Made by a program: the position numbers and the translations under genes. 34,502 nucleotides of DNA from a virus (Duplodnaviria > Caudoviricetes), in IMG/VR virus record IMGVR_UViG_3300006193_000026, positions 1-34,502 of that record; one strand, 5' to 3'. Positions 2,399 through 34,502 of this stretch are shown here, piece after piece (position 1 is the stretch's first letter; each line of letters opens with the position of its first letter). The notes under the pieces were generated by a model. That model was given only the letters and a program-made list of their open reading frames with translations, had not been told where the DNA came from and searched no databases.

Positions 2399-2654
2399 TA
2401 ATACTGGAGAAAGTAAATTACAGACATTGTTAAAAAAGCAAGAAAGTTTAATTAAAAAGAAAATTTTTGCTCAAGAACAAATTAAGGGTATGAAAGCCTT
2501 AACTGTAATTTATGGAACAGAAATTATTAAAATAGAAGATGAATTATTGAAAATAACCAGGAGGAAAGAATATGTTGAAAGAACAGCTAAACAATTTAGA
2601 GACGCTGGGACCAATAGGAATAAAGATAAGAACTCAAATGGAAATGTTGTTTGA
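2358..2654 (+). CDS. Hypothetical coiled-coil protein
   Basis: ORF track 2349..2654; the ATG at 2358 follows GAGGA and is the likelier start. Confidence 0.6.
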   Translation: MIKSKIDYLKLIVDNTGESKLQTLLKKQESLIKKKIFAQEQIKGMKALTVIYGTEIIKIEDELLKITRRKEYVERTAKQFRDAGTNRNKDKNSNGNVV

Positions 2655-4860
2655 TAAATTATCTAATAAAACTGATAGTAATAGAAAACCAGATGTTGTA
2701 ACAGTTATTAATAATAATAAAATTGACTTTAATATTGCAATACAATTATCACATTCAATGATAGCTACTGGTGTATCTGAAGGTCAGAACTTAACACAAT
2801 TAGCAATTGCCATTGGTGATAGAATATTTAGTTATTATAATATTAGTAAAAAATCATCAATTGCTTTAAAGTTAGGTGTATTTATTATCAATTCATATAG
2901 CATATTATTTATGGTGGTAGTAAAATTAATAAGAGAATATTATCAACATAATAAAGTTAAAACTGTTTATAAAGTTTATGCTGGTAAAAATAGAAATGAT
3001 CTTAGAAAATTAGTAAAAGAGTTTGCTGAAGTTTCAGATCCTTACAAACCGTTATTAACTAAGGCTCCAGATTGGAAGTTTGGTACAGTAACAATAGACA
3101 ATGGTGAAGAAATTAAATTGATTAAAAATGTTAATAAAGATACATTAGCAAAAATTAATGAATATAATACTCCTATTGTTTTAAATGCAGTAAATAAAAA
3201 ACAAGCCATAGGTTATTATGTTAAACCTGAAGTATTTAATGTTTATAAATGGGCATTAAAAACTAACCAAGATTGTTTTGAACATAATTCTGTTAAAACA
3301 ATTTCTAAAGAAAGAGCATTGGCTAAGAAAAGAGAGGCTGAGCAAGTTTTAAATGCAACTAAGCCTTATGTTGGTACTGTATTTTATCAACAATATCAAG
3401 CAGATAACAGGGGAAGGTTATATCCATTGTCAGCTTATTTGAATGAATTAAACTCAGATAATGCTAAGGGTATGCTTACATTTGCAGAAGGTAAACCACT
3501 TGGCTTAACTGGATTAAATCAGTTATATCATCATATAGCTAATATGTATGGTGAGGATAAATTGCCCCATGAAGACAAAGTTAAATTTGTAGAAAATAAT
3601 TATTATGACTTTGTTAAATGTGGTAAGGATCCTTATACAGCTAAACGTTGGATGGAAGCAGAAGAGCCTTTTCAATTCTTATCATCTGTTATTGAATTAG
3701 CGGAACTTGATAAACATTTTGTTGATATTAAAAGTGTTGAAACTTTTGTATCTCATACAATTTGTTACAGAGATGGTTCTAATAATGGCTTACAATGGTT
3801 GTTTAGTTTAGCTAAGGATGATAAAAATGCTCATTTGGTTAATGTAGCTAAAAGTAATGATAATAAACCAGGTGATATGTATTCCCATGTAGCAGTTTCT
3901 GTTGTGGATAAAATGCATAAAGAAGCAGAAAAAGCAGATGACTTAGCTTTGGAATATTACAATTTATATTTTAAAGGCATAGAAAAACTTAGGAATAAGT
4001 TTAGAATTGCTGAATTAAATAGTGATACAAAAGCAGAGTTATATAAAAAACTAATAAGATGGTATCAAAGAAGATATAAAAGTCAACTTAAATTAACTGA
4101 TATTATTTATTGGGATAAGTCTAAGTTTACTGTTAAGGAGTGGAGAAAAATAGTAAAAAGAAATGTTATGACTTATGGTTATAGCGCAACAAAGCAAGGT
4201 ATGGGTGAGCAAATAATACAAGATACTAGAGATATAGATAATGTATATTTGAGTAACAAACAACACAGTGCGGCTAGGGCTTTGGGCGCTCTTGTTTATT
4301 TAACTATTGAACAAGAATTTCCTATGGTTTCTGAAACTATGAAGTTGTTTAAAGACAATTGTGAAAAATATATGAAGGATACTGGAAGACAATATTCTCA
4401 TAAAACATTAATTAGCAATTTTCCTTTTACACAAAAATATGTTAAATATAAAAGAGGTATTGTGTTTGTTCACGATGGTTTATATGTACAAAATGCAGAT
4501 AAATCTTACAAATGGGATTATCAATTAGAGTTAATTATAAAAACAGAACTAGCTGTACAAAACATTAGTAAAGCTAAGGCTGGAATAAGTCCTAATACAA
4601 TTCATAATTTGGACTCATTACATTTAATGCTTGTAATTGATAAATGCAACTTTGATATAGTATCAGCACATGATAGTTATGGTTCACATGCTTGTAATGT
4701 AGTTGATATGCAAAAATGTATCAGGGAGCAATTTAAATATATCATAGACCAGGATCCTCTTGAACATATATTAAAAGAAACAGGAAACTTGGTACCTATG
4801 ATTCAACGTGGCAATTTAGATAGCAGTGAAATATTGCAATCTGAATTTGCCTTTGCTTAA
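2572..4860 (+). CDS. T7/T3-family single-subunit DNA-directed RNA polymerase
   Basis: DNRGRLY; motif A RDGSNNGLQ; motif B RKIVKRNVMTYGY; ISPNTIHNLD; motif C AHDSYG; C-terminus EFAFA like T7 RNAP (FAFA). AGGAGG SD upstream. Confidence 0.97.
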   Translation: MLKEQLNNLETLGPIGIKIRTQMEMLFDKLSNKTDSNRKPDVVTVINNNKIDFNIAIQLSHSMIATGVSEGQNLTQLAIAIGDRIFSYYNISKKSSIALKLGVFIINSYSILFMVVVKLIREYYQHNKVKTVYKVYAGKNRNDLRKLVKEFAEVSDPYKPLLTKAPDWKFGTVTIDNGEEIKLIKNVNKDTLAKINEYNTPIVLNAVNKKQAIGYYVKPEVFNVYKWALKTNQDCFEHNSVKTISKERALAKKREAEQVLNATKPYVGTVFYQQYQADNRGRLYPLSAYLNELNSDNAKGMLTFAEGKPLGLTGLNQLYHHIANMYGEDKLPHEDKVKFVENNYYDFVKCGKDPYTAKRWMEAEEPFQFLSSVIELAELDKHFVDIKSVETFVSHTICYRDGSNNGLQWLFSLAKDDKNAHLVNVAKSNDNKPGDMYSHVAVSVVDKMHKEAEKADDLALEYYNLYFKGIEKLRNKFRIAELNSDTKAELYKKLIRWYQRRYKSQLKLTDIIYWDKSKFTVKEWRKIVKRNVMTYGYSATKQGMGEQIIQDTRDIDNVYLSNKQHSAARALGALVYLTIEQEFPMVSETMKLFKDNCEKYMKDTGRQYSHKTLISNFPFTQKYVKYKRGIVFVHDGLYVQNADKSYKWDYQLELIIKTELAVQNISKAKAGISPNTIHNLDSLHLMLVIDKCNFDIVSAHDSYGSHACNVVDMQKCIREQFKYIIDQDPLEHILKETGNLVPMIQRGNLDSSEILQSEFAFA

Positions 4861-8358: not shown

Positions 8359-8387
8359 ATCTTAATGTTTAAGGAAAAAAACACATA

Positions 8388-9989
8388 ATGTCAATTACAT
8401 ATAAAAACAGCTCGATAGTTAAATCATCGACAGCTGCAAGAGGACCTGGGTATCCTAATGATGAATACCTAAGTCAAGTAAATGAATGGAAACGAAACAG
8501 AGCAGTTATTCAAGGTCCAAGTTATACAAAAGACTTTGATACTGTACCTTCAAGCGATAATTTATTATTACCGTTTAACCCAACAATGACTCAAGCTCAA
8601 TATGATTTTTATAAAGCTGAAGCTGAGGTACCTGGTGTATCTAGTGAATTTTGTAAAATGATAATTGGTGGTTTATTAAGAAAACAACCAATGCTAGAGC
8701 TCAAAGGGGCTCCGGAGGGAGCTAAACAATGGATATTAGAAGATATTGGTTCAGATAAATCAAATTTAATATCATTTTTGTCTGCTGCTTTGTGGGAAGA
8801 GTTACAAACAAGCCGTGCATTTATTCAAATAGACTTTCCAATTGTTGATTTAGAAAATTTATCACCTGAAGAAAGAAAAGAAGTTAAACCATACCCAATA
8901 TTACACACAGCTGAAAATATTGTTAATTGGTCTACTTCAGTAAACTATAAAGGTCAAGTAAAGTTAGATCAAATAATTACTAGATACTTTACAACTCAAT
9001 ATGATCAAAATAGTCCATATCATCCTAAATATTTAGATACTGTACAAGTACATAGATTAGATGAAGATGGTTTATATGTTATTGACACATTTTATAGAGC
9101 AACCTCTGATACGCCTTCATTTATTGATGGTGGAGTTGATTATGCATTTGATCAATTATCAGATGATTGGGTTTTATCATCAACAAATAGCAATTTATTT
9201 AAAAACGGTGAAAGATTAAATATAATTCCTTTTTACCCTTTAAATGGTTCAATTGATACAGTTGATCCTTTAATGACTGTTATTGTTAATAGAGAAATTG
9301 CTTTATATAATAAAATTTCAAGAAGAAACCACTTATTATATTTAAGTGCAACTTATACACCTGTTGTTAAATCTGATTCATTAACAGAATCCGAAAAATC
9401 TGAACTTGTTAAACAAGGATTAGGTACTTGGTTATTTGTTAATAAAGATGACACTGTTGAAACACTTCAAACACCTACTAATGCTTTAAAAGATATGGAA
9501 GCTGCTATATTAGGTGGTTATGATGAATTAACAAGAATAGGTGTTAAAATGTTAAGCCTAGAGCCCAGTAATTCCGATTCATCTGGCGTTGCTTTAAGTT
9601 TAAGAAATGCTTCACAAAATGCTGCTTTGGCAAGTTTAAATGCTAAAATATCAGAAAGCATGAAAAAAATAATTAAAGAAATGATTAATTGGAGATATGA
9701 CACTAATATCGGCGAACAAGATATAAGATTTAATCTATCATCTGACTTTAATGCTACACCAAGAGGTAGCGATTGGATGAGATTAATTACTGAATGGTAT
9801 CAAAATGGATTAATTCCAAGATCAACATTCTTAGAAGTTGCTAAAAATAATGATGCAATTCCTACGGATTATGATGATATTAAAGGTAATGATGAAATAT
9901 CTAACGATGATAAAATTGTTTCTCCAAGAGAACAATATCAACAAGAACTAAATGTTATTCAAACCGGTACTGATACTGTACCTGAATAA
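8388..9989 (+). CDS. Portal protein (DUF4055-like)
   Basis: 533 aa following TerL; YDFYKAEAE, ENIVNW, IPFYP and SGVAL motifs typical of this portal family. Confidence 0.9.
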   Translation: MSITYKNSSIVKSSTAARGPGYPNDEYLSQVNEWKRNRAVIQGPSYTKDFDTVPSSDNLLLPFNPTMTQAQYDFYKAEAEVPGVSSEFCKMIIGGLLRKQPMLELKGAPEGAKQWILEDIGSDKSNLISFLSAALWEELQTSRAFIQIDFPIVDLENLSPEERKEVKPYPILHTAENIVNWSTSVNYKGQVKLDQIITRYFTTQYDQNSPYHPKYLDTVQVHRLDEDGLYVIDTFYRATSDTPSFIDGGVDYAFDQLSDDWVLSSTNSNLFKNGERLNIIPFYPLNGSIDTVDPLMTVIVNREIALYNKISRRNHLLYLSATYTPVVKSDSLTESEKSELVKQGLGTWLFVNKDDTVETLQTPTNALKDMEAAILGGYDELTRIGVKMLSLEPSNSDSSGVALSLRNASQNAALASLNAKISESMKKIIKEMINWRYDTNIGEQDIRFNLSSDFNATPRGSDWMRLITEWYQNGLIPRSTFLEVAKNNDAIPTDYDDIKGNDEISNDDKIVSPREQYQQELNVIQTGTDTVPE

Positions 9990-10575: not shown

Positions 10576-11166
10576 ATGGAGATTTTTAATATGAATTACA
10601 AATTTACTACAATATTAATTACAATGATGGTTTTATTGGCTTTATTTGGTGGACCTGCACATAGTAGAAATGACTATTTAAATAATTATGGTAACAACTG
10701 TAGTTATGGAAGTATTGATTTATCTATTTCTGCAAATGAAACCGATCAAAGATATCGTATTCCAAGCAATAGTGATTATGATAATAATAGGCAAGAATTA
10801 AGATTATCATTTAGAAAAAATTTAGGTATAGCTAAAAAACAATGTGATGAGCAAAATAGAATAATAACTCACAATATGAAATTAATGCAACAACTTGAAT
10901 TAAACAAAAATTGCCCAAGAGTTAATAGAGATACAACACTTCAATATAATTCTAATTTTAAAGAATTAGTAGCTTATTGTAAAAATATTATAGGGGTTAA
11001 AGACAATAAACCTGATGATAATGGAAGTTACTGGGATACTATTAAAGACGATTATAAAAAAGAAAATCCAGATGTTAAAATAATGGGAGATAAGATTATA
11101 ACTAATAAAAAGAAATTAGTAATACCAAAATATTTAACAGATGAGTTACCAATACCAACAAATTAA
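10576..11166 (+). CDS. Secreted/periplasmic hypothetical protein
   Basis: Signal-peptide-like N-terminus ending PAHS; four Cys. Confidence 0.7.
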   Translation: MEIFNMNYKFTTILITMMVLLALFGGPAHSRNDYLNNYGNNCSYGSIDLSISANETDQRYRIPSNSDYDNNRQELRLSFRKNLGIAKKQCDEQNRIITHNMKLMQQLELNKNCPRVNRDTTLQYNSNFKELVAYCKNIIGVKDNKPDDNGSYWDTIKDDYKKENPDVKIMGDKIITNKKKLVIPKYLTDELPIPTN

Positions 11167-11291: not shown

Positions 11292-13046
11292 ATGATAATA
11301 GAAGATAGAGATAATTTACTGACAGATTTCGGTAAAACTACACTAAAGGATAGGTATTTGTTACCTGAAGAAAACAGTCCACAAGAAGCATTTTTAAGAG
11401 CGGCTAAAGCCTTTTCTGACAATGATGAAATGGCAAAAAGAATTTACGATTATTCATCTAAATTATGGTTTATGTATTCAACGCCGATATTAAGTAATGG
11501 TGGAACAGAGCGAGGTATGCCTATATCATGCTTTTTAAATTATGTAGGTGATAGCCGAGAAGGCTTAACTGATCATTATACTGAAAATGCTTGGTTAACA
11601 TCTATTGGTGGCGGCATTGGCGGCTACTGGGGAGATATAAGAAGTGATGGAACTAAAACATCAGGTGGTTCTCAATCATCTGGAACTATTCCATTTTTAA
11701 AAGTAGTAGATGCAGAAATTATGGCATTTAGTCAAGGTAAAACTAGAAGAGGTAGTTATGCCGCATATATGAATGTATCACACCCTGAAATATTAGAATT
11801 TTTAGATATAAGAAAACCATCAGGTGGAGATATACATAGAAAATGTTTAAATTTACATCATGGAATAAATATTACTAATGATTTTATGGAACTTATAGAA
11901 AAATGTATAGCTGAACCTACTTATGATGATACTTGGAATTTAATAGATCCTCATACTATGGAAACAGTAAGAACTGTATCAGCTAGAGATTTGTGGCTTA
12001 AAATATTAGAAAATAGAGTAGCTACTGGTGAGCCATATATTTGTTTTATTGATCATATCAATGATGCATTACCCGAAACACAAAAGAAATTAGGTTTGTC
12101 TGTTAAACATTCAAATTTATGTACTGAAATTACTTTACCTACTGATGAAGATAGAACAGCAGTATGTTGTCTATCATCTGTTAATTTAGAAAAATATGAT
12201 GAATGGAAAAATGATAAATTATTTATATCTGATGTAGTTAGATTTTTAGATAATACATTACAAAGTTTTATAGATAATGCTCCTGAACATGTAGCTAGAG
12301 CTAAATATAGTGCAACTCAAGAAAGATCTATTGGATTGGGTGCTATGGGTTTTCATGCTTATTTACAAAAAAATAATATTGTATTTGAATCTGTTTTAGC
12401 AAAATCTAAAAACAAGCAAATGTTTAAACATATAAAAACAGAAGCTGTTAAAGAATCTCAAAGGTTAGCTATAAAAAGAGGTGAAGCTCCGGATATGGAA
12501 GGCACTGGAATGAGAAATGCTCATTTACTTGCTGTTGCTCCTAATGCTTCAAGTTCAATTATTTGTGGGACTACTTCTCCAAGTGTTGAACCTTTTAGAG
12601 CTAATGCTTATGTTCAAAAGACTATGTCAGGTTCTTTTCTTGTTAAAAATAAATTTTTAGAAAAATTATTAGAAACAAAAGGTATTAACAACGAAAAAAC
12701 ATGGACTTCAATCCTTGGTAATCGTGGTTCAGTATTACACATTAAGGAATTATCAACTTGGGAAAAAGATGTATTTAAAACTGCTATTGAAATTAACCAA
12801 AGTTGGGTTATTGAACATGCAGCTGATAGACAAGAATTTATTTGTCAAGGTCAATCATTAAATATATTTGTACCTGCTGATGTTAATATTAAAGAGTTAC
12901 ATGATACGCATATGTTAGCTTGGAAGAAAAAATTAAAAACTTTATATTACTGTAGAAGTGAAGCAATTAAACGTGCTGAACTAGTAAGTAAAAAAGTTGA
13001 AAGAACAATAATACCTGAAGCTGAATGTTTAGCTTGTGAAGGTTAA
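11292..13046 (+). CDS. nrdA: Class I ribonucleotide reductase alpha subunit, without ATP cone
   Basis: PISCFL, SNLCTEI, VCCLSS, APNASSS, TLYY and C-terminal CLACEG. Confidence 0.97.
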   Translation: MIIEDRDNLLTDFGKTTLKDRYLLPEENSPQEAFLRAAKAFSDNDEMAKRIYDYSSKLWFMYSTPILSNGGTERGMPISCFLNYVGDSREGLTDHYTENAWLTSIGGGIGGYWGDIRSDGTKTSGGSQSSGTIPFLKVVDAEIMAFSQGKTRRGSYAAYMNVSHPEILEFLDIRKPSGGDIHRKCLNLHHGINITNDFMELIEKCIAEPTYDDTWNLIDPHTMETVRTVSARDLWLKILENRVATGEPYICFIDHINDALPETQKKLGLSVKHSNLCTEITLPTDEDRTAVCCLSSVNLEKYDEWKNDKLFISDVVRFLDNTLQSFIDNAPEHVARAKYSATQERSIGLGAMGFHAYLQKNNIVFESVLAKSKNKQMFKHIKTEAVKESQRLAIKRGEAPDMEGTGMRNAHLLAVAPNASSSIICGTTSPSVEPFRANAYVQKTMSGSFLVKNKFLEKLLETKGINNEKTWTSILGNRGSVLHIKELSTWEKDVFKTAIEINQSWVIEHAADRQEFICQGQSLNIFVPADVNIKELHDTHMLAWKKKLKTLYYCRSEAIKRAELVSKKVERTIIPEAECLACEG

Positions 13047-13063
13047 TAGAAAGATTAAAAAAA

Positions 13064-14017
13064 ATGAGTTTATTTGATACTAGAAATCATTATAAGCCCT
13101 TCGATTATGGTTGGGCGTTTGAGGCATATGAAACAATGCAGAAGATGCATTGGCTTCCTAGTGAAGTACCATTGCATGAAGATGTAAGGGATTGGAATGA
13201 AAGATTAACTGAAGAAGAAAAAAATTTAATATCTCAAATATTAAAATTCTTTACTCAAGGTGATGTAGATATAGCACAAGCTTATTTGGATAGATATATT
13301 CCAAAGTTTAAATCTCCCGAAGTAAGAATGATGCTTGCATCTTTTGTTGCCTCTGAAGCTAATCATGTTCATAGTTATTCATTATTAAATGATACTATTG
13401 GTGAAACACAATTAACTAATTTTAAAGCATTTCAAGAATATAAAGAAATGTCTAATAAACATGCATACCTTTTTAAATCTAAGGGTAAAGGCACTCAAGG
13501 ATTAATAAGAGATATTGCTTGTTTTTCTGCATTTGGAGAAGGTTTACAATTATTTGCATCATTTGTAATGCTTTTAAACTTTCAAAGATTTGGAAAAATG
13601 AAAGGTATGTGTCAAATTGTTACTTGGTCTATTAGAGATGAAACACATCATGTTGAATCAATGATTAAATTATTTCATACATTAGTAAAAGAAAATCCTG
13701 AAGTATGGACAGAAGAATTTAAAGCTGAATTATATCAAACATGTAGAGATATGGTTGAATTAGAAGATAAATTTATTGACTTAGCTTTTGAAATGGGTGG
13801 TATCCGTGGATTAAACCCTGAAGAAGTTAAACAATATATAAGGTATATTGCTGATAAAAGATTATTACAATTATCTTTAAAACCAAATTATAAAATTAAA
13901 GAAAACCCGTTAAGTTGGCTTGATTGGGTTATTAATGGTGTTGAACATACTAATTTCTTTGAAAATAGAGCTACTGAATATAGTAAAGGTTCAATAACTG
14001 GTAATTTGTGGGGATAA
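13064..14017 (+). CDS. nrdB: Class I ribonucleotide reductase beta subunit
   Basis: Metal ligands FTQGD, EANHVHSY (with radical Tyr), GEG and RDETHH; C-terminal NFFENRATEY. Confidence 0.97.
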   Translation: MSLFDTRNHYKPFDYGWAFEAYETMQKMHWLPSEVPLHEDVRDWNERLTEEEKNLISQILKFFTQGDVDIAQAYLDRYIPKFKSPEVRMMLASFVASEANHVHSYSLLNDTIGETQLTNFKAFQEYKEMSNKHAYLFKSKGKGTQGLIRDIACFSAFGEGLQLFASFVMLLNFQRFGKMKGMCQIVTWSIRDETHHVESMIKLFHTLVKENPEVWTEEFKAELYQTCRDMVELEDKFIDLAFEMGGIRGLNPEEVKQYIRYIADKRLLQLSLKPNYKIKENPLSWLDWVINGVEHTNFFENRATEYSKGSITGNLWG

Positions 14018-24276: not shown

Positions 24277-24714
24277 ATGATAAGAATTGGAGAATACAAA
24301 GACGTTGAACAAGGTGTAAAATTACTTGAACAACACAGAATGGAATTTGATTTTGGTCAATTTAAAGAAGACAATACAGAGTATTATACAGGTTTAATGG
24401 AAGCAATAGCTAAAGATAAAACTGCAGTAATATCAGAAAATGAAAATGGTATAATTGATGGTGTATTATTAGGAATGAAAATACCTAATTTATTAAATCC
24501 ACAATTATGTCAATTACATATTTTATTAACTTGGGTTCACCCTAATAAAAGGGGATCCTCTGTATTTTATAGGATGAATAAAATGTTAGAAAAAGAAATT
24601 AAAAATCATAAAGAAGTTAAGGATATAATTTTTTATTCTATTCCAGAAACTAATATTAATTTTAATAAGTTGAATTATAAAGAATTTCAATTAATGTACA
24701 AAAAGGAAATTTAA
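24277..24714 (+). CDS. GNAT-fold protein within the tail module
   Basis: MIRIG N-terminus and TWVHPNKRGSSV, resembling GNAT motif A. Confidence 0.6.
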   Translation: MIRIGEYKDVEQGVKLLEQHRMEFDFGQFKEDNTEYYTGLMEAIAKDKTAVISENENGIIDGVLLGMKIPNLLNPQLCQLHILLTWVHPNKRGSSVFYRMNKMLEKEIKNHKEVKDIIFYSIPETNINFNKLNYKEFQLMYKKEI

Positions 24715-24716
24715 CT

Positions 24717-27290
24717 ATGGCAGCAGCCGCACCTATTATTGCAGCAGTAATGGCACCAACCATACAGGGAATGGTACTTCGATTTGCATTGTCAGTAGCA
24801 GTTTCATATATTACAAATAAATTATTTGCTCCAGATGTACCTGCCGGTCCAGGTGCAGCAGATCCAGCTCCAGATCCAGGAGTTAGACAAAGAATAGCTT
24901 CTAATCCTAATAATAAATTACCTGTTCTTTATGGACAAAATAAAATATTTGGTTCAATTACATTTGCTGATATTACATCTGATAATCAAACAATGGCGTT
25001 TATTGTTAGTTTATGTGAAGGACCTATTCAAACTATTGGTCAAGTATGGTGGGACAATTTTAAATTAACTTTAGATAGTAATGGTAATGTAACAAATGCA
25101 ACTGATGGTGAAGGAAATACTGATGATTTTTTAAATGGAAATTTAACAGTTAAAAAATTTAAAGCTGGTGGTAGATGTTCTCCTATGGAATCATTTTCTA
25201 CTAAATGGAATACAAATGCAGTAAATAGAACAATGCCCAATGTTGCATATTTATATGTAGAATTAAAATATAATAGAGATGAATCTGTAACTGGTTTAAC
25301 ACCTAAATTAGGTGCAGAAGTTGAAGGTAAATTAATTAGAACATTTAGTGGATCTACTTTATCTAGTGGTACTTCATATTCAAATAATCCATCTGAATGT
25401 TTATTAGATTATTTAACTAATACTGTTTATGGTTGTGGTGATGTAATTTCTGATACTGATGTTGATTTAACAAAATTTGCTTCTCATAAAACATTTTGTG
25501 ATACTTTAATTACACATACAGATAAAGATGGAAATTCAACAACAGCTAAAAGATATAAAACAAATGGAGCTATAAATACATTTGATGAAAGAGATTTAAG
25601 TATTTCTGATTTAGTTAATTGTTCGCAAGGTATATTTTCTTATCATTTAGGTAAATTTCAAGTTATTTCTGATACTATAGGATCATCCGTAATGTCATTT
25701 AATGCTGATAATATGTATGGTGATTTTACAGTAGTTAATGATGGTTTTAATAGTTCATTAAATAAAATGAATATTTCATTTTCTTCTTATGATGAAAAAT
25801 ATCAAGATGATCAAGTATTTTTAAATTTAGCTGCTAATCAAAAATCATTTAATGAACCAGAATTAGTTCAAGATACAAGATTTAAATTTATAAATAATAA
25901 TATTATGGCTCAAAGAGTTGGTAATGTTATTATTAAAAGATCAAGAGATAATTTAATTGTTTCATTTAAAACAGACACAAAGGCTTTAGCATTACAAGTT
26001 ACAGATATAATAGCAGTTTCAAATAATACTTATGGTATTACAAATAAATTATTTAAAATTAATTCTATTACTGAAACAGATATGGGTAATGAAGGTATTG
26101 CAGGTTATTTAATTACAGCTCAAGAATATAATGCTGATGCATATACAGAAGAAGCATTAACAGAATTTCAATTAGCTCCAAATACAAATTTACCTAATCC
26201 TAGAAATTTTGGAGCAATTACTAACTTAACAACAATTAGTAATAATACAGATTCTTCTACTCCATTTGTAGAATTACAATGGACTGTACCTACTGGATTA
26301 ACAGAAACATTTGAAATATATGTTGGAGATAATATTAATAATACTGTTGCTCAAAGATTGTTTAATATTTCATTTAGAACATCTACAGGTCCATTTGCTG
26401 AAAATACAATAGTTAAACATAAAGTATTTGATTTAGATTTTACAGATACGTTAGTATTTTGGGTAAGACCTATTAACCAATTTGCTAGAGGTGGTTTTTC
26501 TAATGCTTATGACTTTGGTGTATTTAGACCAGGGGCTGGTGGTATTACTTCTGGTGTTTCTGGAATTATTGTTGATCCTAATGATTTAAAAAATCCTTAT
26601 GGTGTTGTAAATAGATTTACTCAACTTAAATATGGAGATAGCACTACTGGTTTAAATATAAGAGATGGTTTTACTGATATTGATTCTGTTCAACAAATAG
26701 GTTATGCTGGTTCAGCAATTAATACAATTACTAGAACTGGTGGAACTGATGGCTCAGGGTCTATAACATTTCCTACAAATTTTAATGCTGGTGTAGCAAC
26801 AACGGAAGAACAAGAATTAAGTTTTACAGGAACAAGAGGTAATATAACACAAAAAGAATTATTACATATTAATTTAGCTGATGATATAAAAAATGATACA
26901 GTTAGAAAAACAATATCAAATATTGCAATTTGGGGATCAACTGGTTTTTTAACTGTAAATTCATCAAGTAATAGTGTTAAGGTTAATGATATTATAGAAT
27001 TAGCTTCATTAGTAGTTGCTGGAGTATCTTCTGGTTTTGGAAGATCAGTATGTATAGGTACTTTTTATGCATATGTAATGTCTGATACTGAATTATTTTC
27101 ATTTAAATTAGCTTTAGGTACTTGGACATTTTTTGCTAGAACAAATTCAGGTGGAGTTCAAAATTATAATGTTTCTGATATGGGAGATGATGTATTGCTT
27201 TATAACTCATCTACTAATGAAGGACAAATATGGAATGCCTTTTTAATACCATTAACATTTGGTGCTACAGGTGGAGGTCAATTTAACTAA
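24717..27290 (+). CDS. Tail tip / central fibre protein (lambda J-like), ends [11 protein letters not shown]
   Basis: LPVLYG, LCEGPI, NNPSECLLDYLTN..YG and LQVTDII motifs; FnIII-like LQWTVP...FWVRPIN. Confidence 0.88.
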   Translation: MAAAAPIIAAVMAPTIQGMVLRFALSVAVSYITNKLFAPDVPAGPGAADPAPDPGVRQRIASNPNNKLPVLYGQNKIFGSITFADITSDNQTMAFIVSLCEGPIQTIGQVWWDNFKLTLDSNGNVTNATDGEGNTDDFLNGNLTVKKFKAGGRCSPMESFSTKWNTNAVNRTMPNVAYLYVELKYNRDESVTGLTPKLGAEVEGKLIRTFSGSTLSSGTSYSNNPSECLLDYLTNTVYGCGDVISDTDVDLTKFASHKTFCDTLITHTDKDGNSTTAKRYKTNGAINTFDERDLSISDLVNCSQGIFSYHLGKFQVISDTIGSSVMSFNADNMYGDFTVVNDGFNSSLNKMNISFSSYDEKYQDDQVFLNLAANQKSFNEPELVQDTRFKFINNNIMAQRVGNVIIKRSRDNLIVSFKTDTKALALQVTDIIAVSNNTYGITNKLFKINSITETDMGNEGIAGYLITAQEYNADAYTEEALTEFQLAPNTNLPNPRNFGAITNLTTISNNTDSSTPFVELQWTVPTGLTETFEIYVGDNINNTVAQRLFNISFRTSTGPFAENTIVKHKVFDLDFTDTLVFWVRPINQFARGGFSNAYDFGVFRPGAGGITSGVSGIIVDPNDLKNPYGVVNRFTQLKYGDSTTGLNIRDGFTDIDSVQQIGYAGSAINTITRTGGTDGSGSITFPTNFNAGVATTEEQELSFTGTRGNITQKELLHINLADDIKNDTVRKTISNIAIWGSTGFLTVNSSSNSVKVNDIIELASLVVAGVSSGFGRSVCIGTFYAYVMSDTELFSFKLALGTWTFFARTNSGGVQNYNVSDMGDDVLLYNSSTNEGQIWNAFLIPLTFGATGGGQFN

Positions 27291-27817
27291 TGCCAATATT
27301 ACAAACATTACCAACTTTAGATATTTCTAATAACATTGTAGATACAAATGAAAATATTATTGTTTGGTACAATGGAACTAAAATAAGATATTATCACAGA
27401 TTTGAAAAAGTATTTAGAGATGTTGAAACTATTAGTGGTATTTTATCAATTAAACTTTTAAATGATAATAATATAAAAATAACTACAAGTACAAAAGTTA
27501 GAGAATTAATTTTAACAAGACCAGCTACAACAAATACATATACAATTACTTTAGATAGTAATTATGATACTAATATTGATCCATTGGCAACATGGACATT
27601 ATCTTTAACAGATTATGGTATTTTAACTGATAGTATGTCTTCAACTGTTGCAGGTACTGCTACGGCTATAGCTTTAGCAATTAATAATTTAACTGGTTTT
27701 AGTTCTACTTCTAATAGTAATATAATTACTTATACTAATACTGGTTCACAAGTTGTACAAACAAGTTCAATAGATTTTAGTTTATCTACTGCAACTGGTG
27801 GTGGTCAATTTAATTAA
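27290..27817 (+). CDS. Tail-tip associated protein, ends TATGGGQFN
   Basis: TAATG-coupled; Thr/Ser/Asn-rich and beta-rich; TATAIALAIN domain. Confidence 0.75.
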   Translation: MPILQTLPTLDISNNIVDTNENIIVWYNGTKIRYYHRFEKVFRDVETISGILSIKLLNDNNIKITTSTKVRELILTRPATTNTYTITLDSNYDTNIDPLATWTLSLTDYGILTDSMSSTVAGTATAIALAINNLTGFSSTSNSNIITYTNTGSQVVQTSSIDFSLSTATGGGQFN

Positions 27818-27835
27818 TAATAAAGGAAATTAAAA

Positions 27836-29971
27836 ATGTCAATAAGTTCTGTTTATTCAAATTCAGGAACATTTGCAACAGCCGATATTATTACAGCTAC
27901 CATGAAAAATAGTTTAAATAATATTCATGTAATAGATGATACTTCTGTTGTTGCAGTTAATACTACAAATGCACAAGTATATACTAATAGTGGTAGTGGA
28001 TATGTATCACAAATTACTCATGCAAGTACAAGTGATGTTGTTGGTTTTAGTAAAGAATTTATTTTAGGAACTAATTTATATATTTATAATACTACTCAAC
28101 CTGTTTCAAATACAAGATGGAATACAGGTACAGATACAAAATATTCAGTAAGTTTAGGATCTTTAGGATCTATAACTAATAATACATTTTCAAATAATAT
28201 TGGTGTTATTGATGCATTAAATGAAATTAGAACAGCAATATTAGGTTTAAGTATAAGTGGATTATCAGTTTCATTACCAACTTATGTATCAGATATAAAT
28301 CCAGATACTAGTGTTATTGATTTTTCAGGTTATGGTATAATAATTAATACAGGTTCATCAACAAATGAAAATACATCTTTTTCAATTAATGATGTTTATG
28401 GTGATGGTTCAAATATTATTTATAATTATGAATTTGAAACAGATGGTGCTGGAACTTCACAATCAACTACAATATCTTTAACTGAGCCAGATGGAACAGG
28501 AACTTATACATTAAGTATTGCCGCTGATGCTACAGATGATAATCAATCAAATAGTATTGGAACAGATTTAATTGCATTAGTAAATAATAATGTAGAATCT
28601 CCTAATAATTATACTGCTACATATAATACTTCTTCTAAGAAAATTACATTTACATCAGTAAGTACATTTGATTCAGTTGCTAGTGAATTATGGACTGCTA
28701 CAGTAAATAATAATTCTGTTAGTGGTGTTAATGAAGGTAATATTATTTTTGGTACATCTACTATGACAAGAACAGGTATACTTGGTTCATCATATACTAT
28801 TACAGCACCTAATTTATTTACTAAAACTGTAAATGGTTTACCCCTATTTAGTAAAGTTACATTTACTGGTGGAACAGAAACAGCATTTAGTGATAATATA
28901 AATGCAACTGCTGCGGCTCTCGAATTTAAAAATGCATTAAATACTTCTTTAAATGGTTTTATGACTGCAACAATAGATTCAGGTGATTCAAAAATAGTAA
29001 ACTATACTACATCTATTCAAGATGATATTGGATTAAACTTAGTTTTTTCTAATGCATCAATTAATAAAACTATTACTCAAGGTATACTAGGTACTACACA
29101 AACAAATATTAATAATGCTGGTAAAACTAATATTCAGGTATTTAAACCTGGAAATGTTAGTTCTGATTATAATAAAAACTTCGTTGGTTTTGTACCAACT
29201 TTAACTGGTGCTATAAATACACCAGCGGATATAATATCAAATATTAATACAACAATAACTGATTGGACTATTGAAAAAGATCAACCAGTAAATAATCAAA
29301 TTAGGTTTACTTCAGTTGATAGTCAATATGTCAATAATGTATATAAATTAAATGTAACAAATACTACGGCTACTGGAACAACAACAGGTGATTTTTCAAC
29401 AGGTTTAGGTAATGCTACGATTACTACTATTGGTTCATCGGTTCCAGATTATTATGGTTTAAGATCTGTAACCTTAGCTAATAAAGATGTTTTTTCAAGT
29501 ACACCAACAGATTATTCTTGGTTTGAAACTACTAAAAATAATTTAAATACTATATTTCCAGGATATAAAGTAGATGCTTTAAAAACTCCAGAATTTGCTT
29601 TTGATGGTATAACAGGAACTACTCCTAGATTAGTAGATGGATTTTTTGCTATAGGTGCTAATGCAGGTGGTCAATATGTTATTGATACTGATGCTGTTAC
29701 ACTTACTGAAATAGCTAATATACCTGTTGATACAACTACTAATACAATATTTGGATCTGAAATTATTTATTTTTCTACTAAATTATATTTAGCATATAGA
29801 GTAAATAATGATAGTGAAATTACTGCTTTGTCTTTAGGAGGAAGTAATTCAGGTGCAACAATTTATACCAATAATGGAACTACTTATTCAATAGTAGATA
29901 GTAATAATGCTGTATTAATTGCCAATTATATATATAAATGGAATGGTACTGCATGGGTCAAAGAAACTTAA
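27836..29971 (+). CDS. Tail-tip associated protein (711 aa) with repeated domains
   Basis: AAGGA SD; T/S/N-rich; several helix-plus-strand repeats; ends YKWNGTAWVKET. Confidence 0.8.
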   Translation: MSISSVYSNSGTFATADIITATMKNSLNNIHVIDDTSVVAVNTTNAQVYTNSGSGYVSQITHASTSDVVGFSKEFILGTNLYIYNTTQPVSNTRWNTGTDTKYSVSLGSLGSITNNTFSNNIGVIDALNEIRTAILGLSISGLSVSLPTYVSDINPDTSVIDFSGYGIIINTGSSTNENTSFSINDVYGDGSNIIYNYEFETDGAGTSQSTTISLTEPDGTGTYTLSIAADATDDNQSNSIGTDLIALVNNNVESPNNYTATYNTSSKKITFTSVSTFDSVASELWTATVNNNSVSGVNEGNIIFGTSTMTRTGILGSSYTITAPNLFTKTVNGLPLFSKVTFTGGTETAFSDNINATAAALEFKNALNTSLNGFMTATIDSGDSKIVNYTTSIQDDIGLNLVFSNASINKTITQGILGTTQTNINNAGKTNIQVFKPGNVSSDYNKNFVGFVPTLTGAINTPADIISNINTTITDWTIEKDQPVNNQIRFTSVDSQYVNNVYKLNVTNTTATGTTTGDFSTGLGNATITTIGSSVPDYYGLRSVTLANKDVFSSTPTDYSWFETTKNNLNTIFPGYKVDALKTPEFAFDGITGTTPRLVDGFFAIGANAGGQYVIDTDAVTLTEIANIPVDTTTNTIFGSEIIYFSTKLYLAYRVNNDSEITALSLGGSNSGATIYTNNGTTYSIVDSNNAVLIANYIYKWNGTAWVKET

Positions 29972-29980
29972 TTAATACAA

Positions 29981-30004
29981 ATAATATATCTATAGGTATA
30001 TTAT
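29981..30004. promoter_or_regulatory. Intergenic palindrome
   Basis: ATAATATATC-TATA-GGTATATTAT, 10-bp stem with one G-T pair. Confidence 0.4.
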
Positions 30005-30032
30005 AACTCATAACTAACCTACAGGAGATAAT

Positions 30033-30482
30033 ATGAGAATATCAAACATACAAAATTACTTAGGAGGAGCAGATAATATTATTGCTCGAGAAATATCCGA
30101 AGGTAATCAATTTTTACTATCAATAGAAGATGGCACTATAGATTTTAGTGCTTCTGCTACAACTTTTGATATAAAGGCTGATTTATTTGAAGCAAACGTT
30201 ACAAGAAAGAGAGGATCTATTACAATTGATTCATTAACAGCAGTTGGTGCTGCAACACAACATACTTATACAAAAGCAGAATCGGTATTTAATACTACTG
30301 TTGCTGGTAAATTTGAGTTGTTGGTTCCAAGTACAATATTATCAGATCAGGGAAGTTATACTTCTACACCTGATGATGCATCTCCATATATCGTGGTTAT
30401 GAAAGTACAATGGGCTGCAGGTACTCCCTCAGTTAAAAATTCAATTAGGTTCGTATTTGTAATAAGATACCAACCTCAGTAA
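30033..30482 (+). CDS. Fibre adaptor / BppU-like baseplate protein (possible)
   Basis: AGGAG SD; beta-rich with GKFELLVP; precedes the fibre gene. Confidence 0.55.
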   Translation: MRISNIQNYLGGADNIIAREISEGNQFLLSIEDGTIDFSASATTFDIKADLFEANVTRKRGSITIDSLTAVGAATQHTYTKAESVFNTTVAGKFELLVPSTILSDQGSYTSTPDDASPYIVVMKVQWAAGTPSVKNSIRFVFVIRYQPQ

Positions 30483-30495
30483 GGAATAAATAATT

Positions 30496-33400
30496 ATGAC
30501 AATTAAAATAGATGGAATAACTTCAACTATAACCGTTTCAAAACAAACAGGACCAATAGGTCCAACAGGTCCGCAAGGATCAATAGGTAATACTGGGTCA
30601 CAAGGATCACAGGGTATTCAAGGATCCCAAGGATTACTAGGACCAACTGGTAACACAGGTAGTAAAGGTAATGATGGTATACAAGGTCCAACAGGATCAC
30701 AAGGTCCTACTGGTACAACTGGTGCTACTGGTGCTGCAGGTGCTAGTGGTGTAGTTAGTGATGCTACAGTATTTCCAATTATTGATAGCCGTGTAACTAA
30801 AAATTATGTTAACAATTTAAATGTAGATGCCGATACTTTAGACAATCTTAATTCTACTTCTTTTGAACAAATATCTAGAAAAAATATTAACAATGGCTAT
30901 GCAGGATTAGATGCTGCTGGTAAAGTTGCTGTTGCACAATTACCTAGTTATGTAGATGATGTAGAAGAATATGCTAATTTTGCAGGTTTTCCAGCTACTG
31001 GAGAAGCAGGTAAAATTTATGTGGCTATTGATACTGGTGATGTTTATAGATGGGCAGGAAGTGCTTATGTACAAATTAATGACGCAGTTACATCTGCTGA
31101 TCAAGCTACAAAATTAGCTACAGCCAGAGACATTATATTAACAGGTCCAATTACTGGAAGTGCTAGTTTTGATGGAACTACTAATGCTTCTATTACAACT
31201 TCATTAAATATATCTTCTAAGTCAACTTCTGATTTATCTGAAGGAAGCAATTTATATTATACTGATGCAAGATTTGATACTAGATTAGCTTCTAAAAATA
31301 CAGCTAATTTAAGTGAAGGAACAAATCTTTATCATACTGATGCAAGAGTTCAAACAGTTATTAATACAAACTCAGCTGGTTTTATTACACCAAGTTCATC
31401 AAGTGCACTTACAAATAAAACTGGTAATATAAGTCAATGGACAAATGATGCTGGATATATAACAGCTGAAACTGATTCACAAACCTTATCATTTAGTACA
31501 CCTAATTTAACTATTTCAAATGGTAATGCTGTTGATCTTAGTTCATTAACTACTAATTTTATTACAGCATCAAGTACAGATAATTTAACAAACAAAACTT
31601 TAACAGATGCTGTTGCAGTAACAAATTCTGTAACTGGTGAAATAGTTCCAGGTAAGATTGGTGGAACTAATTTTACAAATAGTTTATTAGTTGGTCATGC
31701 AACTACTGGAACTTTAAATAATGCAACACACAATACAGGTATTGGAATTGATGCTTTAAATTCAATTACTTCTGGAGACTTCAATACAGCTTTGGGCTCT
31801 AATGCACTAACTGCTTTAGATACTGGTCAAAGAAATATTGGAATTGGTTTTTTTGCTGGTGTTAAAATACAAGGTGGAGATCACAATCTTGCTATAGGTC
31901 ATGCTTCTTTAGCAGAAGCTGTTGATGCTGTAAGAAACACAGCAGTAGGTTATCAGTCTGGTAATAAAACAACTGGAAATTTCAATACTTATCATGGCTA
32001 TCAAGCTGGATTGAATATAGCAAATGCAAACTATAATGTAAATTTAGGTTGGACATCTGGAGATAATATTACAAGCGGTTCTGGAAATGTTTCTATTGGA
32101 GCAGCAGCAGACCCATCTTCAGCAACTGGTAATAGACAATTAGTTATTTCAGGATATGATGGAACAACTACAACTACTTGGATTAGCGGAGATAGTGACG
32201 GTAAACTTACAATGACAGATGGTGAAATTATTCCAGGTAAGATTGGTGGTACTAATTTTGCAAACAGTTTATTAATTGGTCATGCAGATTCAGGAACTTT
32301 AAATAATGCTCAAAGTAATACTGGAGTTGGTATTGGTGCTTTAGATGCCTTAACTTCTGGTGATAATAATACAGTCATGGGATTTGCGGCAGGTGACTCA
32401 ATAACAACTGGTGGACAAAATACATATTTGGGTACTCAATCTGGTACTAATTCAAATGGAAATGAAAATGTTGGAGTTGGACATCAAACTTTAATTGGCG
32501 CTAGTGGAATTAGAAATACAGTAATAGGTATGAAAGCTGGGCATGTTATTTCTGGAGATTATAATATTTGTGCGGGATGGAAATCTGGTGATAATATTAC
32601 AAGTGGGGATGGTAACGTAATTATTGGTGGTGTTAATGCTACTTCAGCTACAGGAGATAGACAATTAAAAATTGCTGGATATGATGGTTCAACAACTACA
32701 ACTTGGATATCAGGTGATAGTTCAGGTAATTTAACAACTACTGGTGATATAGATCTAAATGGTAATAAAGTATTATTTGCTAATATGTATTCTGCTATAG
32801 GAGATTTACCAAGTGCTTCTACTTATCATGGTATGTTTGCTCATGTTCATGGAACAGGTAAAGGTTATTTTGCACATGCTGGTAATTGGATAGAATTAGC
32901 CAATAAATCAACTACATTAGCAGGTTATGGAATTACAGATGGTTACACAGATGCAAAAGTTGATGCTAGAATAGCTGCTGGAGGTGCTAATCCAACAATT
33001 AGTTCTATTAGTCCAAGTACAATAATAGGTAATGTTGTATCTACAATTACGGTTACAGGTTCAAATTTTGCTGTTGGAACACAAGTAGAATTTATAAATA
33101 CTGCTACAGGTATATGGTATCCTGCTATTACAATTGTATATAATAATAGTACATCATTAACTGTTAAAATTAATTTAACTATTGATGCTCAATATAGAAT
33201 GAGAGTTGAAAATGGAGACGGTAGAGCAGTCATATCAACTAGTAATATTTTAAATGTATCTGATGCACCTACATGGTCAACAAGTGCAGGTAGTTTAGGT
33301 TCTTTTGCTGGAAACTTTTCTGGTACAATTGCAAGTCTTTCTGCTTCTTCAGATAGTGCTGTAACATTTAGTGAAGTTGGATCTAATTTAACAGGAGCTA

Positions 33401-33576
33401 ATGTTACTATGACATCTGCTGGTGTTTTAAGTACAACTGATTTTGGTGGTTCATCAACAAGTGCAACAACTTATAATTTTACAATTAGAGTAACCGATGC
33501 TGAAGGCCAAACGGCTGACAGATCATTTAGCTTTGCATCTACATTTGGTGCTACAGGCGGAGGACAGTTCAATTAA
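30496..33576 (+). CDS. Mosaic tail fibre (collagen, beta-roll repeats, Ig-like C-terminus), ends [11 protein letters not shown]
   Basis: 22 G-X-Y triplets; LSEG.NLY.TDAR twice; duplicated NT..G repeat module; PTISSISP (IPT/TIG-like) and [19 protein letters not shown] (Ig/cadherin-like). Confidence 0.9.
30550..30747 (+). repeat. Collagen-like (Gly-X-Y)22
   Basis: GPI GPT GPQ ... GAT GAA GAS, uninterrupted. Confidence 0.95.
31636..32727 (+). repeat. Internal tandem duplication in the fibre gene
   Basis: Units at 31636-32202 and 32221-32727, both running [19 protein letters not shown] ... [15 protein letters not shown]. Confidence 0.9.
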
Positions 33577-33668
33577 TGAGTAAATTAAATCTTAAATTAA
33601 AAAAGGAAATAAAAAATATAATGAATAAAATTAAAAAAATAATTAACGAAATAATGGGGGTTAACTAA
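33576..33668 (+). CDS. Short basic ORF (30 aa) coupled on both sides
   Basis: Not in the ORF track. [30 protein letters not shown]; TAATG overlaps at both ends. Confidence 0.45.
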   Translation: MSKLNLKLKKEIKNIMNKIKKIINEIMGVN

Positions 33669-34502
33669 TGGCTACTGCATTACAAAGAACTTTTGGAACA
33701 CCAACAAATAATAAAATATTTACATTATCACTTTGGTTAAAAAGAGCAGCAGGTGATATTAATAATACTATAACTTTAGTTCAAGGTGGTGGTTCTTCAA
33801 GACCCACATCAGAGCTTGTTTTAAATAGTGAAGCAATAGCATTATCTCAATATGATGGTTTAAATTATAATTATAATGTTAGAGCATATTATAAAGCAAG
33901 AGATCCTTCGGCTTGGTATCATATTGTTTATACTTTTGATAGTACACAATCTACAGCAAGTGATAGGGTTAAATTTTATGTAAATGGAGTTATACAAAAT
34001 TATAATATGCAAACCACAGCTTATCCAAGTTTAAATTATGTTCCTGCCATGAATGGTGCTACTAGTCATGCTATTGGTGGTTCTGTATTTGGTAGTTTTT
34101 CAGCAAATGCTTTATGTCTAATGTCTCATATACATTTTACAGATGGTACAGCTTATGACCCAACAGCATTTGGAGAAACAGATAGTACAACTGGAGAATG
34201 GAAAATTAAAACTGATGTTAGTGTAACTTATGGAAACAATGGTTTCTTTATTTTAAAAGATGGTAATTCAGTAACAGACCAATCTGGCAAAGGTAATAAC
34301 TGGACAGTTGGTGCAGGTACACTTACAAAAACAGAAGATTCTCCAAGCAATGTTTTTTGTACAATGAACGCATTATCAAAATCTTTAACAAATGTAGTTT
34401 TATCAAAAGGTAATACAGTAGTTAGAAATGACTCAAGTGCTAATGGCAATGTATTAGGAACGATTGCTTTAGGTAATGGTAAATATTATTGGGAAAATTA
34501 CA
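33668..34502 (+). CDS. LamG/concanavalin A-like lectin-domain tail protein (truncated by window end)
   Basis: Not in the ORF track because it has no stop in the window. MATALQRTFG...FTLSLWLKR, RDPSAWYHIVYTFDST...RVKFYVNG; GKYYWE (SPRY-like) at the edge. Confidence 0.85.
   Translation, partial: MATALQRTFGTPTNNKIFTLSLWLKRAAGDINNTITLVQGGGSSRPTSELVLNSEAIALSQYDGLNYNYNVRAYYKARDPSAWYHIVYTFDSTQSTASDRVKFYVNGVIQNYNMQTTAYPSLNYVPAMNGATSHAIGGSVFGSFSANALCLMSHIHFTDGTAYDPTAFGETDSTTGEWKIKTDVSVTYGNNGFFILKDGNSVTDQSGKGNNWTVGAGTLTKTEDSPSNVFCTMNALSKSLTNVVLSKGNTVVRNDSSANGNVLGTIALGNGKYYWENY

Follow-up and report, generated by a model that had tools for sequence, protein, structure and literature searches.

A shared C-terminal tag on three tail proteins of a Kolga-like phage is a candidate portable β-strand for docking a putative LamG adhesin

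Why should three different tail proteins of one phage end in the same peptide, exactly at their stop codons? This question is raised by IMG/VR record IMGVR_UViG_3300006193_000026, a 34.5-kb phage contig of 30% GC, all 34,502 nucleotides of which were analysed and are referred to here as the window. Its tail region encodes, in order, a J-like tip protein (J, 857 amino acids), protein S (175 amino acids), protein T (711 amino acids), a 149-amino-acid protein, a collagen fibre (1026 amino acids), a mini-ORF (open reading frame) of 30 codons and a LamG/SPRY protein; J, S and the fibre carry the shared tag ([12 protein letters not shown]). Our preferred answer, drawn from sequence comparisons and predicted structures and to which we assign a probability of about 0.72, is that the tag completes the LamG fold in trans and so would dock one putative adhesin on the side fibre and on two tail-tip pieces, i.e. 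at up to three sites. The features concerned are listed below.

24717..27290, plus strand: J-like central tail-tip protein, 857 amino acids, first tag carrier (PHROG 31, central tail fiber J, E 1e-40)
27255..27290, plus strand: copy 1 of the tag, reading [11 protein letters not shown] and lying at the J/S break; its stop overlaps the next ATG (TAATG)
27290..27817, plus strand: protein S, 175 amino acids, second tag carrier; residues 1–73 continue the J chain, 74–167 are an added region and the tag comes last
27788..27817, plus strand: copy 2 of the tag (TATGGGQFN and stop)
27836..29971, plus strand: protein T, 711 amino acids, no tag, apparent C-terminal piece of an ancestral J+S+T chain
30496..33576, plus strand: collagen-repeat side fibre, 1026 amino acids, with two immunoglobulin (Ig)-like domains and the tag at its end, third carrier (Pfam Collagen and TIG)
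33541..33576, plus strand: copy 3 of the tag, reading [11 protein letters not shown] and in register with the SLRF(N/D) motif that Ig–LamG fusions carry
33576..33668, plus strand: Lys/Ile-rich mini-ORF of 30 codons between fibre and LamG, TAATG-coupled at both ends
33668..34502, plus strand: LamG/SPRY protein, the proposed acceptor, with the first LamG strand missing (Pfam Laminin_G_3, 37.5 bits)

The original prediction, made from the DNA alone, held that J, S and the fibre all end in ATGGGQFN at the stop codon; the ORF ends bear this out, and under a composition model the chance of three of the 39 complete plus-strand genes of the window sharing their last eight residues is approximately 1e-15. 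No fourth C-terminal copy was found in the window, where a tape-measure-like gene has a partial internal match (GGQF). The sequences preceding the tags had been called unrelated, which is largely correct, except that permissive BLASTP gave weak matches (22% for S against the fibre and 25% for J against the fibre) that are probably compositional. It had further been argued that selection acts on the peptide at a free C-terminus and not on a DNA site, and here the data agree: copies 1 and 3 differ at five nucleotides, every one in a third codon position, and copies 1 and 2 show four synonymous differences across ATGGGQFN. A scan of IMG/VR for the codons of ATGGGQFN, in which no stop was demanded, listed at least 122 loci; of the 122 matches listed, 120 run straight into a stop, another ends QFNN and the last is internal. 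When cellular genomes were scanned with a similar pattern, a stop followed nine of 67 matches, eight of the nine being in phage-type carriers, and the other 58 had none.

Conservation in relatives points the same way. In 43 loci of J relatives, which include near-duplicate contigs, 34 of the 35 complete J ORFs end in QFN, and the exception is a broken ORF with the tag in its downstream piece; of 30 complete S ORFs, 28 end in QFN and the remaining two are S–T fusions. In a further comparison, each of the 23 J ends and 19 S ends retains QFN despite synonymous change. Three loci (L014, L073 and L644) have their tag behind a frame that is broken or extended. We could rule out a DNA or RNA signal as the explanation of the tag, because the codons vary synonymously, the three tag junctions fold no better as RNA than shuffled sequences (z 0.1–1.2) and promoter-like sites are no commoner than in shuffles. 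The likeness of GGQ to the release-factor motif of that sequence was also dismissed, as the variants GAQ, SGG and SMS occur. The tag is a conserved extension at the free C-terminus of tail scaffold proteins, as docking by strand complementation would call for. Searches of the literature outside subscription papers and supplements returned no account of it, and the sole text match to the motif was an unrelated clinical paper.

What the tag is emerged when the LamG/SPRY protein was compared with its homologues. Among the short ones, the best 120 begin like the window protein and have a WxK motif some 23 residues from the start; among the long ones, most of the best 120 contain an extra stretch, ending in SLRF(N/D/R), immediately before the window-type start. 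In 55 aligned unsplit proteins this motif is strongly conserved (S 100%, L 84%, R 95%, F 98% and N 80%), and at least 99% of the split LamG proteins have gaps throughout the SLRFN columns. Five of the long homologues are natural Ig–LamG fusions, and the last 194 residues of the window fibre match the Ig region of two of them, P0188 and P0123, with 40 and 48% identity respectively over about 180 residues. Counted from the F of the last Ig strand, the tag F lies 14 residues away in 213 of the 214 tagged ends and the F of SLRF 14–16 residues away in the five fusions. The tag F is thus in register with the SLRF F, and the split therefore fell directly after FN. On these alignments the collagen side fibre is the original type of tag carrier, and the tag strand would have been left on the carrier when an Ig–LamG fusion split, later to be copied on to J and S. 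An acceptor that lacks an element, and homologues in which both parts form one chain, are what strand complementation predicts. Searching S against the unsplit LamG profile gave no match, nor was there a significant match of the LamG part in a PDB sequence search; with the unsplit profile, the best 60 of 137 PDB rows were SPRY matches.

Structure models agree with the alignments. The LamG/SPRY gene runs off the contig end, such that 278 of about 440 residues are present, and the encoded part belongs to PF13385, scoring above the curated Laminin_G_3 cut-off of 27.6 bits and adopting a jelly-roll sandwich fold in its model. This model matched VIA (4dqa) with a Z-score of 17.7, a root mean square deviation of 2.8 and 187 aligned residues, and pentraxins with Z-scores of 16–17. 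What the chain does not contain is the first strand of a LamG domain: its residue 1 aligns 5–8 residues into most solved LamG and pentraxin domains. In the AlphaFold model of the fusion P0123, SLRF (246–249) forms a strand, and the match to solved domains begins correspondingly earlier for P0123 than for the window model (SAP, 3 versus 10; PTX3, 178 versus 184; NP1, 225 versus 231; PAPP-A, 13 versus 19; neurexin-1β, 37 versus 43), such that the missing piece is the first strand of the canonical fold. Z-scores of the P0123 model against solved domains are also about 2 above those of the window model and its FFILKD strand spans six residues instead of three, the comparison being one of predicted single chains of two different proteins and not of a complex. 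A Foldseek viral search added no named mechanism. Taken together, the alignments and models show the tag to be the positional homologue of the first β-strand of LamG, the strand absent from the window LamG/SPRY protein. The original prediction, which proposed a Gly linker with a QFN-COOH plug, was right to name LamG as the most likely partner; homologue alignments, fusions and models indicate that the tag is not a new linker-plus-plug but LamG's own first strand. The LamG/SPRY protein is a putative adhesin that may bind a carbohydrate or a receptor, a shared fold being no proof of function.

If the tag replaces a missing strand, tag and truncated LamG should occur together, as had been anticipated, and this we found in loci picked by LamG and not by the tag. 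We compared 80 loci picked by split LamG (90 LamG genes) with 80 picked by unsplit LamG. The ORF upstream of truncated LamG ends in F[NDT]P? in 86 of 86 cases, four more genes having no upstream ORF in the DNA examined, compared with one in 73 for unsplit LamG, and that one is a false match (NFTP). Among ORFs of at least 100 amino acids, the same ending occurs in 94 of 583 in split-LamG loci versus two of 824 in unsplit-LamG loci. In a wider set of 327 distinct truncated LamG starts, many of whose loci were picked by the tag, 314 have a tagged upstream ORF, eight have no upstream ORF in the DNA examined and five were flagged as untagged; on inspection, four of these five show a tag or tag-like end, leaving locus L157 as the one true orphan. 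There the truncated LamG is preceded by an untagged gene, and on the contig of 31 kb no F[ND]-ending ORF was found other than J, which lies some 8 kb upstream.

In a quick tree of 87 of the 253 domain cores, 36 of 38 split rows fall in one clade with a support of 98, and the split probably arose once, judged from a split set that was chosen by likeness to the window LamG, which favours clustering. Re-fused members with SLRF (P0123, P0127 and P0130) nest within the split clade, suggesting that the LamG groove is still usable. The truncated LamGs of P0141 and P0196, still fused to DUF7483 (PF24299), are sister to the main split clade (support 86) and could be an intermediate or a separate split. 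LamG/SPRY and DUF7483 form one chain in unsplit homologues such as P0225 and are two adjacent genes in pelagiphages (L142:9767–12138), a second fission in the same module. Some genomes contain two or three carrier–LamG pairs with different tags (GGGQFN, NSGQFN, NSMSFN and NSGGFN; loci L171, L190, L204, L205, L212, L214 and L167, the last being HTVC104P), possibly orthogonal pairs.

How, then, did J and S come to be tagged? A point that had been overlooked in the original prediction is that, by comparison with relatives, J, S and T derive from a single ancestral chain and the tag lies where this chain is broken. A profile search found unsplit chains, P0248 (2408 amino acids) and P0247 (1723 amino acids), although contigs encoding them were not among the loci examined. 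J aligns to residues 12–840 of P0248 and is the N-terminal piece, S residues 4–89 align to 840–931, and T aligns to 1762–2343 and to 1019–1672 of P0247; in P0248 the J match ends at 840, exactly where the S match begins, with no tag between. In loci L157 and L161, S(1–73) runs straight into T, again with no tag. The untagged, continuous J–S in the one case and S–T in the others thus indicate that the window tags mark breaks in a formerly continuous tip protein, and the direction of change would have been fission, because the tag originates in LamG. T had no match in Pfam or PHROG, and Atlas searches found no family for T or the J tail.

The capsid protein of the window phage is 77–78% identical to those of Kolga and Aegir, described as SAR11 siphoviruses (PMC8163748), and for this reason Pelagibacter is the likely host. 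Kolga gp15 was considered as an unsplit J+S+T protein and rejected, as its C-terminal part is unrelated. Among 35 loci with a Kolga-like J examined, the gene is complete in 27, and 26 of these 27 are untagged; in locus L677 a Kolga-like J has gained an Ig-plus-tag end with LamG directly after. Of the whole records searched, 11 have a tagged J; LamG of the window type was found in seven of these, and the remaining four stop within the fibre gene. It was found in none of nine records with untagged J, among them the complete Kolga genome.

Small ORFs also occur directly before LamG. Several relatives have a 26-codon version of the mini-ORF that lies between fibre and LamG in the window, and this mini-ORF may keep translation coupled. 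In locus L127 (5378–5461) a 27-codon ORF lies directly after T and before LamG; it starts like the 149-amino-acid gene, ends in a decayed tag (GTTGGEFN) and looks like a deletion product. We had taken L127 for a second orphan LamG, which was withdrawn once the DNA showed this tag-like ORF upstream.

The mechanism that we propose would begin with an Ig–LamG–SPRY fusion splitting directly after FN, the tag strand staying on the carrier. In Kolga-like siphoviruses the long J gene would then have acquired internal copies of the tag plus its stop, which divided it into J, S and T and so gave rise to two further tagged ends. The free C-terminal strand would pair in the vacant first-strand position of LamG, with the tag F packing into the LamG core and the Gly run acting as a tether, such that the LamG/SPRY protein could be suspended from the side fibre as well as from the tip proteins J and S. 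J, S and T would re-associate via their shared fold, and the LamG/SPRY protein would have a role in host attachment. We infer LamG binding, its stoichiometry, the J/S/T re-association and adhesion from the comparisons above.

Several observations weigh against this account. The I and L side chains of the strand are lost in the tag (IxxSLRFN to ATGGGQFN), so only about QFN resembles the ancestral strand and the affinity may be low. The window LamG was modelled confidently in the absence of the strand (pLDDT, the predicted local distance difference test score, of 88), though predictors often do so, and P0123 is a singleton that could be an assembly chimera. Since the sampled split LamGs lie nearly all in one clade, the co-occurrence counts reflect about one origin, and they include near-identical contigs. 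Most of the untagged-J records are fragments, and the orphan case L157 rests on one contig that is 66% complete. Finally, the LamG of L127 keeps its 27-codon upstream ORF ending in GTTGGEFN despite a tagged J and S, which may reflect decay, or that a tag is wanted beside the gene.

In an alternative reading, each tag would re-link its carrier to the protein encoded immediately after it (J to S, S to T, the fibre to LamG), either through recoding at the stop codon or through peptide ligation to the terminal Asn. All three tags do lie at breaks of chains that are continuous in relatives, TAATG overlaps occur at 64 of 86 Ig–LamG junctions, and position 2 of all 327 distinct truncated LamG starts is A, S, P, T, G or V, residues that permit Met removal; the tag-like mini-ORF before LamG in L127 fits as well. 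However, carrier and next gene have no constant frame relation: carrier–LamG spacings of 2, 12, 18, 25, 34, 55 and 82 nucleotides share no frame and the 94-nucleotide spacer of the window has stops in all frames, on which grounds universal frameshifting or read-through was rejected. The lack of a stable RNA fold at the three junctions, the L157 LamG without a tagged neighbour, the existence of FT and FNP ends and the independent explanation of the tag as a LamG strand also speak against a next-gene joint, which we consider unlikely. Ligation figures, too, in the idea that the tag plus stop is a mobile cassette of about 40 bases, inserted by phages in their tail genes so that new adhesin sites arise, and that the truncated LamG is joined covalently to its terminal Asn by a peptide or isopeptide bond. 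Isopeptide tag/catcher pairs have an essential Asn or Asp on the tag and a reactive Lys and catalytic acid on the catcher. In our tags the terminal N is nearly invariant, yet two FT ends exist, which disfavours Asn ligation, and the K of the WxK motif is conserved alike in split and unsplit LamG proteins. The covalent form would, if true, be a natural self-ligating tag/catcher pair of about eight residues in very abundant ocean viruses, and we think it improbable; the non-covalent form of the cassette idea is probably the best explanation.

A tag descended from the LamG strand might instead now serve as a C-terminal peptide ligand for another pocket, in SPRY or in the DUF7483 protein encoded downstream. 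Short peptides are bound by SPRY domains, the large side chains of the strand have been replaced by Gly/Ala, N and the free end are nearly invariant in tags compared with N in 79 of 123 motif matches in unsplit proteins, and DUF7483 follows LamG in the loci inspected. The LamG groove would then stay empty, however, and the nesting of the re-fused P0123, P0127 and P0130, with SLRF, inside the split clade suggests that it is retained, so we give this possibility little weight. Slightly less credible still is a docking role for the fibre tag alone, with the copies on J and S having arrived by recombination and been kept for another purpose, for example to cap the split tip or to help it assemble. 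LamG could indeed be kept out by crowding at the tip, and the copies differ in flavour, J and S favouring GGAQFN (21 of 23 distinct J ends) and Ig tags GGGQFN (146 of 161). But GGAQFN is also found on 84 Ig carriers, 78 of them scored as followed by LamG, the QFN of J and S ends is maintained through synonymous change as described above, and L157 and L677 tie J tags to LamG. Strand complementation of LamG by the tag therefore remains our preferred reading.

The arrangement extends beyond the window. A related LamG gene is present in 26 Pelagibacter phage records, where GenBank names the family 'lectin domain containing' or SPRY proteins, and tag plus truncated LamG were confirmed in the five isolates inspected (Skadi-1, HTVC011P, HTVC204P, HTVC104P and HTVC200P); the split carrier/LamG module is common in SAR11 phages. 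Skadi-1 is among the two most abundant pelagiphages, and Skadi has a lectin-domain gene, a candidate for the same family as LamG/SPRY, in a hypervariable region (PMC10504331); the accessible text of that account does not mention a tag, a missing strand or docking. Such domains are called only putative receptor-binding in the accessible parts of PMC7029224 and PMC10504331. In HTVC200P (L714), a 168-nucleotide, 98% identical copy of the fibre Ig-plus-tag end (8375–8542 and 10819–10986) stands ahead of a second LamG gene, and an inverted gene lies in between. The copy may be a silent adhesin cassette that recombination switches, or it may be an artefact of assembly. The annotated tail-fibre ORF of HTVC011P (L165:3693–5995) stops before the Ig-plus-tag end, which is unannotated in another frame, through either a sequencing error or a real break.

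Elsewhere in the window, a siphovirus-type genome, we noted a T7-like single-subunit RNA polymerase (2572–4860), ribonucleotide reductase genes within the head-gene region (11292–14017) and, in the tail-tip module immediately before J, an acetyltransferase-like gene (PHROG 1249; 24277–24714).

We thus regard the tag as probably a portable single-strand donor for a candidate LamG adhesin, present in several pelagiphage groups and, in Kolga-like siphoviruses, multiplied on the tail tip. If so, it would explain how pelagiphage lectin-like proteins are attached to the virion, how variable adhesins could be swapped behind a constant joint and how the gain of a short tag provided a siphovirus with more adhesins; possibly it also represents a natural peptide tag, very short and paired with a protein. 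Cultured phages would allow a direct test of its part in pelagiphage host recognition.

In chaperone–usher pili, the donor strand of one subunit completes the fold of the next, with a lectin at the tip; that exchange has an N-terminal donor and an Ig fold and needs a chaperone and usher. The tag would differ in being a C-terminal donor with a LamG acceptor fold, and so falls outside that class. The closest solved case is that of the Lactococcus phage Tuc2009, in which BppU ends in a hairpin of 25 residues that completes a β-sheet in BppA, a carbohydrate-binding protein (PMC4742702). As there, a C-terminal extension of a scaffold would complete a β-sheet and attach an accessory protein to the virion, although for our phage this is a proposal from sequences and models. 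Unlike the Tuc2009 hairpin, which has one carrier and a titin-like acceptor apart from the binding module, the donor here would be one strand of 8–11 residues with LamG itself as acceptor, three carriers and unsplit ancestral forms that are observed; with a LamG/pentraxin-like acceptor and a single-strand donor, the likeness to BppU/BppA is one of analogy and not descent. In the Pseudomonas podophage A1002, the split nozzle gp39/gp42 is rebuilt by strand complementation (PMC13730344), so a canonical tail fold is likewise divided over two genes, and the J/S/T split may be of this kind; the A1002 pieces are a large propeller and platform with one partner and, unlike our system, no short portable tag. 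By analogy, then, the proposed tag–LamG joint would work like those of Tuc2009 and A1002 and is a member of neither family.

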